Source of the DNA: an uncultured Veillonellaceae bacterium
GTDB lineage: Bacteria > Bacillota > Negativicutes > JARBTT01
Length of the DNA: 64,000 nucleotides
Assembly: GCA_963805085.1 (NCBI GenBank)
Contig: CAWDTA010000005.1
Coordinates: 288,001 to 352,000, forward strand
Direction of reading: 5' to 3'
This document shows positions 54,590 through 56,671 of this stretch, one piece after another. Each line of letters begins with the position of its first letter. Positions within the stretch are counted from its first letter, which is position 1. Under the pieces are notes generated by a model that did no database searches, was not told the DNA's origin, and saw nothing but the letters and a program-made list of their open reading frames with translations. A program made the position numbers and the translations under genes.

Positions 54590-54706
54590 TGGCTATTTTT
54601 ACTTAATCTATTTTTTTAACTCAAAAGAATTTCAAAAATTTATTTAGTAGAATCTAACACGTAAGGTAAATATTGATTATTAAAAAGAGAAAAGGTGGAA
54701 TATCTT

Positions 54707-54955
54707 ATGAAAGATTTAACTAAAAAAATTATGATATTAGCAATGGTTGGTATGGTGCAAATCGGATTTAGTGCAGCTGTATCAGAGGCTTCATCATTGC
54801 AAAACTTTAATCAACACAAGGTTATACGTTTCGATGATCGGCATGATGGTCTACAAGACCCAAATGATCCTCAATTGAAACCACAGCCTCAACCTCGTCC
54901 AGAACAACCTCAGCTGCAACCGCAACCAGAGCAACCGCAGCCACAACCAGAGTAA
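54707..54955 (+). CDS. small secreted protein with Pro/Gln-rich tail
   Basis: Signal peptide MKDLTKKIMILAMVGMVQIG..EAS and PQPQPE repeats. Confidence 0.65.
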   Translation: MKDLTKKIMILAMVGMVQIGFSAAVSEASSLQNFNQHKVIRFDDRHDGLQDPNDPQLKPQPQPRPEQPQLQPQPEQPQPQPE

Positions 54956-55067
54956 CCATGGAATCAAAACTAATTTAGTCAGTTTTTAGTTAAGTATTGG
55001 AGATTTCAGATACGAAGGTACCTTTGGAATTAATTGGACAAAAATTGGTTGGTTATAGATAAATGTA

Positions 55068-55200
55068 TTGCAATGCATAATCTCTTGATGTATAATCAAA
55101 ATAAGTTAAGTTATTAACTTGTTTGTCAACTTTAGTGTAGAGTACAATGAAGTGCCGACTGGATACGCGTGTGCGTTCTGGTTGGCACTTATTTTTTTTG
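55068..55200 (+). promoter_or_regulatory. sigma-A promoter and attenuator leader (ANTAR-like hairpin overlapping a terminator)
   Basis: TTGCAA-N17-TATAAT at 55068-55096; gtac-AATGAA-gtgc hairpin overlaps terminator aagtgccgactgga...tctggttggcactt+T7. Confidence 0.6.
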
Positions 55201-55429
55201 TATGTGAGGTGAGTATAGTGTCGATTGATAGCGCCTTGATTATATCAGCATCAATGACAAGAAGTTTGACAGGAGTGCAGGTAGTGATATTGGGTGATGT
55301 TAAAGTAGATGCATCTTGGTCATATGGATAGATGAGAATTGAAGTTTCTAGTAAAAATTTTGTAATTGAGTAGTACCTATCTGTTTAGAGTATCAGTCGA
55401 CATTTTATAATCGGAAATAGTCATAACAT

Positions 55430-55734
55430 GATTCATGAGTATTCGTGGTACCCATGGATTAAAATAAAAACCTTCATGAGTATTCGTGGTACTCATAAAG
55501 GTTGTGAAGATCATAATTCCAGTGGTGCTAGGTTTATTTGTTGTACCCATTTTTTGTCTGCTACGATAGCTTCATCAGCATTTTAAGGGGGTGATTTTAT
55601 ACGCATAGAAAAACAAAAGGCTTCATGAGTATTCGTGGTACTCATGAAGCTAGGCAAATTATCTATTCCCAGTGGCACTAGGTTTATTCAATTTACCCAT
55701 TGAACATTATAACACTTTGCTTTTCCTTTTTCAA
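55430..55734 (-). ncRNA. duplicated ~90-nt transcript units antisense to the anf leader
   Basis: Minus-strand TTGAAA-N17-TATAAT promoter with TG extension (55734-55706). Units 55700-55609 and 55550-55461 each end in a ttcatgagtaccacgaatactcatgaa-type terminator; a third hairpin copy lies at 55431-55459. Confidence 0.5.
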
Positions 55735-55786
55735 CAAAATAATAACAAAATTAAATGCTGGATAGGCTTGGTAAATAAGGCAATAG

Positions 55787-56671
<885 letters not shown>

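Follow-up and report, generated by a model that had tools for sequence, protein, structure and literature searches.

What is an apparent transcription unit doing on the opposite strand of a nitrogenase operon leader, directed away from the genes it precedes? The question is raised by a 64,000-nucleotide (nt) stretch of DNA from an uncultured Veillonellaceae bacterium (contig CAWDTA010000005.1, positions 288,001 to 352,000), henceforth referred to as the window, in which the minus strand ahead of the Fe-nitrogenase gene anfH contains a compact element with a promoter-like start and a terminator-like end. Comparison with related genomes strongly supports the identification of minus-strand positions 55734-55609 as the gene of a ~92-nt structured small RNA (sRNA) with its own predicted sigma-A promoter and terminator.

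A predicted small-RNA gene opposite the anfH leader

The sRNA promoter (55706..55734, minus strand) is composed of a -35 box TTGAAA at 55734-55729, a 17-nt spacer and a TG-extended -10 box TATAAT at 55711-55706. It scored 11 of 12, TG motif included, in a promoter scan of that strand, in agreement with the initial annotation of this DNA. Promoter-like sites around the element were at chance level in this AT-rich DNA (5 seen against 6.5 ± 3.0 in shuffles), and the promoter was judged real because it is conserved across genomes, not because of the scan count. An ATG at 55700-55698 lies 6-8 nt past the -10 box.

The predicted transcript, unit A (about 55702-55609, minus strand), was delineated by its fold, by a covariance model, by covariation and by strand-specific G·U pairs. 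It contains an 11-bp stem P1 (55699-55689 with 55661-55651), a 6-bp stem P2 of the form CCUAGU/ACUGGG (55682-55677 with 55673-55668), a conserved single-stranded AAUAAA, and a 12-bp terminator hairpin (55650-55639 with 55631-55620) followed by a U-run at 55619-55609. The same architecture had been proposed by the initial annotation and was reproduced here with a minimum free energy of -34 kcal/mol (z = -6.3). The plus strand of this stretch folds at -26.6 kcal/mol (z = -4.1), without the 5' domain. Unit A scored 102.9 bits with the covariance model.

Two minus-strand terminators were identified, at 55650-55620 and 55503-55469, and terminator-like sites are enriched in the region (3 against 0.6 ± 0.9 in shuffles). 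The second belongs to unit B (55461..55552, minus strand), which is indeed a diverged copy, as the identities of the two repeat families that link the units demonstrate (D1, 90%; D2, 79%). Still present in unit B are the 25 conserved nt of the 5' end, P2 in weakened form and, at 55503-55469, a terminator of 14 bp; the covariance models R1 and R2 scored it at 86.6 and 67.6 bits, respectively. P1 does not form in unit B, and the terminator alone folds (z = -3.1). No promoter-like site was detected upstream of unit B in the promoter scan. With promoter and P1 confined to unit A, the original description of the pair as tandem sRNAs was abandoned.

A lone hairpin at 55431..55459 (minus strand), formerly counted as a third terminator copy, is a hairpin relic and not a strong terminator. 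It is a 73% copy within repeat family D1, comprises 8 bp (55456-55449 with 55441-55434), has no T-run and folds at -8 kcal/mol (z = -1.4), a value equalled by 22 of 200 shuffles. A comparable lone sRNA hairpin is present at 1120-1160 of a Propionispora locus (L060).

Downstream of the sRNA on the minus strand, no open reading frame (ORF) of at least 60 aa occurs before 52400, in keeping with the earlier remark that no recognisable gene lies there. A search of window positions 54600-56000 against Rfam 15 (E ≤ 10) returned matches at chance level, the best reaching 20.9 bits against a gathering score of 60, and a search of 12 related loci (E ≤ 0.1) returned a single match to a miRNA model, at 28 bits against 70. 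This check had been set beforehand, and by it the element is not a described Rfam RNA. The other check set in advance concerned a scattered REP/MITE-like repeat, which was ruled out: BLAST and the covariance model found no copies in the window's own genome beyond the two units of the window, and 90 of the 93 copies in relatives adjoin nifH-type genes.

Conservation of the promoter and of the minus-strand fold

The promoter and the strand of the terminator hairpin were examined in a set of 42 promoter-proximal units from different genomes. The arrangement TTGAAA-N17-TATAAT is kept in all 42, with hexamers that are invariant or nearly so, and the distance from the -10 box to the RNA start is likewise kept; the spacer and the flanking DNA are not conserved. 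Conserved hexamers at fixed spacing around a free spacer are the signature of a working sigma-A promoter.

The terminator hairpin discriminates between the strands. Read on the element strand, 504 of 504 cells are paired, 20 of them as G·U, and 8 of the 12 pairs have changed on both sides (42 sequences, MAFFT alignment). Read on the nifH-sense strand, pairing falls to 96.0%, and the same 20 cells become mismatches with zero wobble pairs. One-sided departures from Watson-Crick pairing are thus tolerated only as RNA of the element strand, which argues against both a DNA palindrome and a sense-strand structure.

Covariation was assessed in a structure-aware alignment of 87 copies (82 distinct sequences), which was fitted to the structure and so favours pairing; the MAFFT alignment agrees with it. 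Two-sided changes were observed in 8 of 9 pairs of P1 (for example G-C to A-U, and U-A or U·G to C-G), in 4 of 6 pairs of P2 and in 10 of 12 pairs of the hairpin. Among the distinct sequences 87.5% of cells are paired, against 37-47% with slid partners, and none of 500 shuffles reached any of five covariation measures. The hairpin is followed by a T-run in the window and in related loci.

The hairpin loop (55632-55638 in the window) is not conserved across families. In the alignment (A3) this 7-nt loop occurs in opposite orientations by lineage (CCACGAA/UUCGUGG and CCGCAAA/UUUGCGG), having flipped at least twice, apparently through small inversions between the perfect inverted arms.

Taken together, the comparison strongly supports selection acting on RNA of the minus strand, and equally strongly supports conservation of a fold made up of P1, single-stranded AAAUAAAC, P2 and an intrinsic terminator. 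The predicted RNA is antisense to the long region between a sense promoter at 55068 and anfH, as first proposed, and it appears to possess one hallmark of a cis-encoded antisense sRNA, namely its own promoter and its own terminator opposite the putative target.

Distribution and linkage to nitrogenase operons

A DNA search of 60 relatives, the first comparison made, showed that several families of the class share the element core (window 55643-55714), and a covariance model was then built from 25 copies. With this model, 48 of the 151 class genomes searched proved to carry the element (35 of the 125 high-quality ones); a second covariance model, applied to a sample of 150 further genomes of the phylum, detected it in none. 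Genomes were classed as NifH-bearing when their best Fer4_NifH match had E ≤ 1e-120, which applied to 64 of the 151 (read from the table). All 48 element-bearing genomes are among these 64, and none of the 87 remaining genomes carries the element.

When the fetched loci were searched again, 108 matches were obtained. Fifteen of them were weak, at 30-34 bits, and represented partial or opposite-strand echoes of the palindromic hairpin; setting them aside left 93 copies. Ninety of these adjoin a NifH homologue of an nifH/anfH-type operon in divergent orientation, and the 5' end of the nearest unit usually lies 55-145 nt from the nifH ATG. In one genus, nifI1-nifI2 precede anfH as the first genes. 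Loci whose NifH is 81-100% identical to the window AnfH carry two to four units, with the exception of L093 (a single unit); loci at 60-66% identity, taken to be Mo-type nif, carry one unit each. The genes past the sRNA terminator vary by locus and include MCP, FtsY, ABC-2, LysE, a binding protein and CodY.

A pattern scan of the genomes of 185,579 species yielded 51 loci, of which 35 were confirmed by the covariance model. The other 16 (Bacteroidota, Gammaproteobacteria and others) received no such confirmation and were dropped as chance matches. Confirmed carriers are Pelosinus, Sporomusa, Propionispora, Propionispira, metagenome-assembled genomes (MAGs) of Negativicutes and Bacillota, and one member of the Clostridia, Ruminiclostridium hungatei. 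The R. hungatei copy (L151, 979-1077) scored 95.6 bits and faces away from an AnfH-like gene; the presence of this copy outside the class points to joint movement of the regulatory cassette and alternative-nitrogenase clusters.

The window AnfH (55844-56671, compared with L054 of genome G092 and with G000:C2:1898030) is 99.6% identical to the AnfH of L054, which comes from a genome of another family and in which the element also scored 102.9 bits. A unit with the identical score was found on a Pelosinus MAG contig (L130), and the one same-genus genome searched is without the element. The window's own Mo-nif nifH, located on another contig, is preceded by a promoter and hairpin leader and has no sRNA. 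With contamination estimated at 6%, the anf region either was acquired horizontally in recent times or lies on a contig that was binned wrongly.

The anf operon and its sense-strand leader

The sRNA points away from anfH (55844..56671, plus strand), the first gene of the operon anfH-nifI1-nifI2-anfD-anfG-anfK(-nifB). The operon genes were identified by Pfam matches to Fer4_NifH and P-II, by an NCBIfam ANFD match of 1079 bits and by anfG and anfK equivalogs above their cut-offs. Because anfH, two P-II genes, anfD, anfG, anfK and nifB follow, the earlier label of the region as an Fe-nitrogenase leader is correct.

A candidate sense promoter of this leader, TTGCAA-N17-TATAAT, lies at 55068..55096 (plus strand) and scored 10 of 12. 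Its counterpart in locus L086, TTGCAT-N17-TGcTATACT, occupies the same relative position, and the promoter region is conserved in three Pelosinus-type relatives (DNA search, query 60-334). It is followed by a terminator-like hairpin and U-run (55142..55199, plus strand; hairpin 55150-55189, then U8), the 5' arm of which can alternatively form the mini-hairpin GUAC[AAUGAA]GUGC (55142-55155) with an ANTAR-like hexaloop. The sense-leader hairpin folds with z = -5.1 in the window (55100-55215) and z = -9.8 in L086, and by eye the sense-leader hairpins contain U·G pairs on the sense strand.

Two Shine-Dalgarno (SD)-like boxes were read directly from the plus strand. The first, AAGGGGGTGA (55585..55594, anfH-sense), is situated between units A and B and, as its reverse complement, gives the sRNA strand an anti-SD-like sequence. 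The second, GTGAGGTGAG (55204..55213), comes right after the sense terminator and aligns with the AAGGAGGTG box of other loci. That box, to which AAGGGGGTGA corresponds as well, is near-invariant and lies just past the sRNA terminator in 23 of 23 aligned loci.

The order of the leader in the nifH direction is common to the same 23 loci: a sigma-A-type extended -10 promoter, one or two long hairpins with T-runs, AAGGAGGTG, the complement of the sRNA gene and of its promoter, and the nifH ribosome-binding site (RBS). A module of AAGC[AAWGRR]GCUU, hairpin and T-run is present in every one of them. Each leader hairpin opens with this sequence, which permits a 4-bp mini-hairpin overlapping the 5' arm of the leader terminator hairpin; counted by eye, the hexaloop has A1 in 20 of 23 loci and G4 in 23 of 23. 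Compared with Rfam, the sense-leader module (promoter, hairpins and AAGGAGGTG box) gave no match. No start codon follows the AAGGAGGTG box in the sense module of the window (55068-55235) or of L086 (2286-2490).

The sense module at 55068-55235 looks like a conditional attenuator of nitrogenase operons in the class. The available sections of PMC3369931 describe ANTAR targets as hairpins with an A1/G4 hexaloop that compete with a terminator, and state that ANTAR leaders often control nitrogen genes, with sites predicted ahead of nitrogenase genes in other phyla. A second conserved hexaloop hairpin directly upstream was not seen when the sense leaders of the 23 aligned loci were read by eye. In L086 two leader modules occur ~70 nt apart, each with its own terminator, where the eut spacing is 5-12 nt. 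Because the canonical second hairpin at 5-12 nt is missing, we did not class the sense leader among the ANTAR targets. Of the ANTAR connection raised by the initial annotation, the part that survives concerns these ANTAR-like hexaloop hairpins of the sense leader; the sRNA itself has no ANTAR-type hairpin. The window's genome encodes two REC-ANTAR-sized proteins, and neither gene is near the anf locus.

Promoter scans of the window and of related loci detected no sense promoter between the sRNA promoter and the ATG. The gap from the sRNA 5' end to the nifH ATG is occupied by the RNA's own promoter and the RBS, and loci with only 55-80 nt in this gap have no room for a sense promoter. Since room and signal for a downstream sense promoter are both missing and the upstream promoter and leader are conserved, the operon is most likely transcribed from the upstream promoter, and the sense transcript most likely crosses the sRNA gene. 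A plus-strand promoter-like site at 55384-55411 was set aside as a likely chance match, its -35 falling outside the stretch conserved in Pelosinus relatives.

Other features of the leader region were recorded. A GTG-started frame of 36 codons (55221-55331, plus strand) follows a GAGGTGAG box within the stretch conserved in three Pelosinus-type relatives. Further upstream, an 86-aa ORF (54695-54955, plus strand) had no match in Pfam or NCBIfam; at its 3' end, 21-nt tandem repeats (54911-54952) encode a Pro/Gln-rich tail. The Propionispora locus L060 has different sense-side hairpins, at 1052-1104 and 1266-1325, with long stems that pair SD-like AAGGGGGUAUC with GAUACCCCCUU, and its lone sRNA hairpin sits between these two long sense stems.

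Proposed mode of action

The explanation that we favour, as probable but with considerable reserve, is that the sRNA belongs to an undescribed family, antisense within the long 5' leader of Negativicutes nitrogenase operons, and acts as a cis-antisense countertranscript gate. Transcription of the operon would begin at the upstream promoter (55068) and meet one or two conditional terminators, the 5' arms of which could form ANTAR-like hexaloop hairpins, before passing the SD-like box and the sRNA gene. Because the leader transcript would run across that gene, the sRNA would be fully complementary to ~90 nt of leader just downstream of the SD-like box. The sRNA promoter would fire head-on at the nitrogenase promoter, 300-700 bp apart. 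When nitrogenase is unwanted, the sRNA would pair with leaders leaking past the terminators; the resulting ~90-bp duplex would be a likely RNase III substrate, and its cleavage would detach the SD-like stabilizer box from the message. The sRNA promoter may in addition obstruct oncoming polymerases, and the switch may be made sharp by strong sense transcription that occludes the sRNA promoter. Unit B and the lone hairpin would be decaying duplicates that serve, at most, as extra stops for antisense read-through.

Several points weigh against such a gate. We infer both the sense read-through across the element and the RNA itself from sequence. A conserved internal loop is something that a pure cis-antisense RNA can do without, and the first 25 nt (AAAUGGGUA...AAAUAAACC) are conserved so strictly as to hint at a further partner, be it a protein, a ligand or a role at the DNA level. 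Classical plasmid countertranscript attenuation is inapplicable as such, since the complementary stretch is located downstream of the sense terminators. Distal units that lack promoter and P1 are kept in several species, which is poorly explained if they are decaying duplicates. Sixteen of the 64 nifH-bearing genomes do without the element. Lastly, three copies, all in one family, are not beside nifH (L108, 2501-2601; L116, 415-510; L118, 2501-2601). On one side, the L118 copy is divergent from an operon that encodes an MFS transporter and then formate-THF ligase; a LuxR-type two-component pair flanks it on the other. The gene starts at L108 and L116 resemble the L118 transporter, L118 being the one locus examined. 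Because the gate leaves the invariant 5' 25 nt and the kept distal units unexplained, a role in binding a protein or a ligand stays alive.

Relation to known regulatory RNAs

The closest parallels in design are the countertranscript and convergent-promoter regions of Gram-positive plasmids, such as pCF10 prgQ-prgX with Anti-Q, RNAIII of pIP501 and RNAI of pT181. There too, the controlled leader contains terminators and encodes, facing the operon promoter, a small and stably folded antisense RNA that is strongly promoted and separately terminated. The window element differs from them in being chromosomal and tied to nitrogenase operons, in having no sequence relation to them, in the conserved internal-loop domain of its RNA, and in the position of its sense terminators, which stand upstream and not downstream of the complementary stretch.

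An sRNA as a second layer on an ANTAR leader has a counterpart in EutX/Rli55, which reportedly titrates the ANTAR protein EutV. The resemblance of the window-type leader to ANTAR targets resides in the AAGC[AAWGRR]GCUU mini-hairpins that overlap the terminator 5' arm. It does not extend to a second hexaloop 5-12 nt away, to an ANTAR-type hairpin in the sRNA or to ANTAR genes near the locus.

The SD-like box recalls STAB-SD, the 5' stabilizer of the Bacillus thuringiensis cryIIIA mRNA, in that a long Firmicute leader contains a perfect SD-like AAGGAGGTG at a great distance from any start codon downstream of it. Here the AAGGAGGTG box is placed between two convergent terminators, unlike STAB-SD, and its complement would be an anti-SD on a read-through antisense RNA; its role as a stabilizer is putative.

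In Nostoc, NsiR1 is encoded in tandem repeats, each with a terminator. Other sRNAs of nitrogen fixation include NfiS and NfiR of Pseudomonas stutzeri, ArrF of Azotobacter and sRNA154 of Methanosarcina mazei, as named in the available parts of PMC6606865 and PMC9170634. All of these resemble the proposed system as small RNAs that tune nitrogenase expression after transcription start, and they differ from it in being trans-encoded, in belonging to Proteobacteria, Archaea or Cyanobacteria and in being unrelated in sequence; none is known to be antisense in a nifH leader. The available text of the 2022 review of nitrogen-related non-coding RNA (PMC9170634) contains no Firmicute nif-associated small RNA; the word Firmicutes is absent from it, and Clostridium appears only for synthetic sRNAs. 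A search of the open literature, with subscription journals and preprint supplements outside its scope, did not yield any account of an sRNA in a nif leader or divergent from nifH in Firmicutes or Negativicutes. The element appears to be a new RNA family that shares design, not sequence, with plasmid countertranscripts and with combinations of ANTAR leader and sRNA layer.

Alternative explanations

Among the alternatives, the one that survives best, although it is considered unlikely, accepts the RNA as real and assigns its P1/AAAUAAAC/P2 domain and hairpin to the binding of a protein, by which a leader antiterminator or a nif regulator would be titrated, or to action in trans on mRNAs. Such a role would fit the sequence conservation of the unpaired parts and that of the stem GCUUCAUGRRUA, which goes beyond what a terminator or a cis-antisense RNA needs. 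It would also fit the arrays of two to four units with lone hairpins at alternative-nitrogenase loci, the service of the same RNA to nif, anf-like and MFS/formate-THF ligase operons, and the AAUGGG at the RNA 5' end, which is the commonest ANTAR-like loop of the leader. Against it, complements of the single-stranded motif are not enriched: the window contains 37 where 43.9 would be expected, and the anf operon contains none. A specific form of this idea, the sRNA as an ANTAR sponge, was rejected: the RNA has no hairpin with an A1/G4 hexaloop, its loops being 3-6 nt in P2 (GCC, UGUCCA, CGCAA) and 7 nt in the terminator (CCACGAA, UUCGUGG, CCGCAAA). Pairing of the RNA 5' end or hairpin arm with the leader terminators was likewise rejected as a conserved mechanism; it was found in Pelosinus only (AAUGGG/CCCAUU, GCUUCAU/AUGAAGC), and by eye the complementarity to leader hairpins neither is kept in other genera nor covaries between them.

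A broader and more speculative proposal, to which still less weight is given, is that the sRNA goes beyond a countertranscript and belongs to a two-RNA switch dedicated to nitrogen fixation in anaerobic Firmicutes, in which it would be either the sensor or the titrating partner. The invariant P1/AAAUAAAC/P2 might bind a nitrogen, energy or metal signal, or the antiterminator of the ANTAR-like leader, and thereby set whether the leader terminators and the SD-like stabilizer allow nitrogenase mRNA to pass, and the cassette might travel with its clusters from Negativicutes to Ruminiclostridium.

The 5' domain could also be read as a riboswitch-like sensor, with a conditional terminator through which a ligand reporting nitrogen or metal status sets antisense read-through into the nif leader and promoter. 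Riboswitch-controlled antisense RNAs reportedly occur in Listeria and Clostridium acetobutylicum, and the element does present a stem, internal loop and stem with covariation, an invariant loop sequence and a terminator directly after, together with promoterless distal units that only read-through could reach. This reading is nonetheless held to be improbable. The switch suggested by the initial annotation, in which the 5' AUGGGUA pairs with the terminator 3' arm, is formed in close relatives and drops to 4-5 of 7 pairs in divergent members (by eye), so that no conserved antiterminator pairing was found. Only the 5' side of the internal loop is invariant, the 3' side not being conserved; the 12-bp hairpin, 100% paired, looks constitutive; and the genes downstream on the same strand differ by locus, with no constant regulated gene among them.

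Comparably improbable is the view that the conserved sequence acts mainly as DNA, with the palindrome and the 25 bp after the start as operators at a bidirectional promoter region and the RNA as a by-product. Conservation is indeed strongest at +1 to +25, the classic operator position, the hairpin loop occurs in either orientation (CCACGAA/TTCGTGG and CCGCAAA/TTTGCGG), and the -10 box is nearly symmetric. All 20 non-Watson-Crick cells, however, are G·U on one strand and none on the other, P1 covaries with G·U pairs and bulges, and the loops differ between families, so that they are not a conserved contact. A shared bidirectional -10 box was rejected because a sense promoter using it would have no usable -35 or TG motif (by eye). 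A sigma-54 promoter formed through TGGCAC in the P2 complement was also rejected: the -12 GC is never present (TTTATT or TTCATT in the copies seen) and TGGCAC is missing in nifH-type copies. The window's genome encodes sigma-54.

The leaderless micro-peptides (MGKLNKPSATGNR and similar) once read from units A and B, which have similar short frames and, in the window, an ATG at the predicted start site, are scarcely credible: of 93 copies, 73 have A, 74 have T and 68 have G at the respective start positions, so that a start codon exists in at most 68 and ATG is missing in at least 25 (variants ACG, AUA, AAG and UUG, also AACGGG, AAAGGG and AACAGG), frame lengths extend from 13 codons up to frames that run on into the hairpin, P2 indels are not multiples of three, and the 5' substitutions formerly taken as synonymous changes are instead compensatory for the helix.

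Implications

To our knowledge, strictly anaerobic Firmicutes lack the NifA/NtrC circuitry of Proteobacteria, and how they switch nitrogenase on and off is poorly understood. A conserved two-part convergent control region has now been mapped ahead of the Mo- and alternative-nitrogenase operons of Pelosinus, Sporomusa, Propionispora, Propionispira and their relatives. One strand contributes a promoter, a terminator leader, ANTAR-like hairpins and an SD-like box, and the other a strongly promoted, structured small RNA. With this map, the question of the nitrogenase switch becomes testable by a few point mutations in cultivable strains. The work also provides a new RNA family with a covariance model usable for genome annotation, and a marker for the horizontal movement of alternative-nitrogenase clusters.

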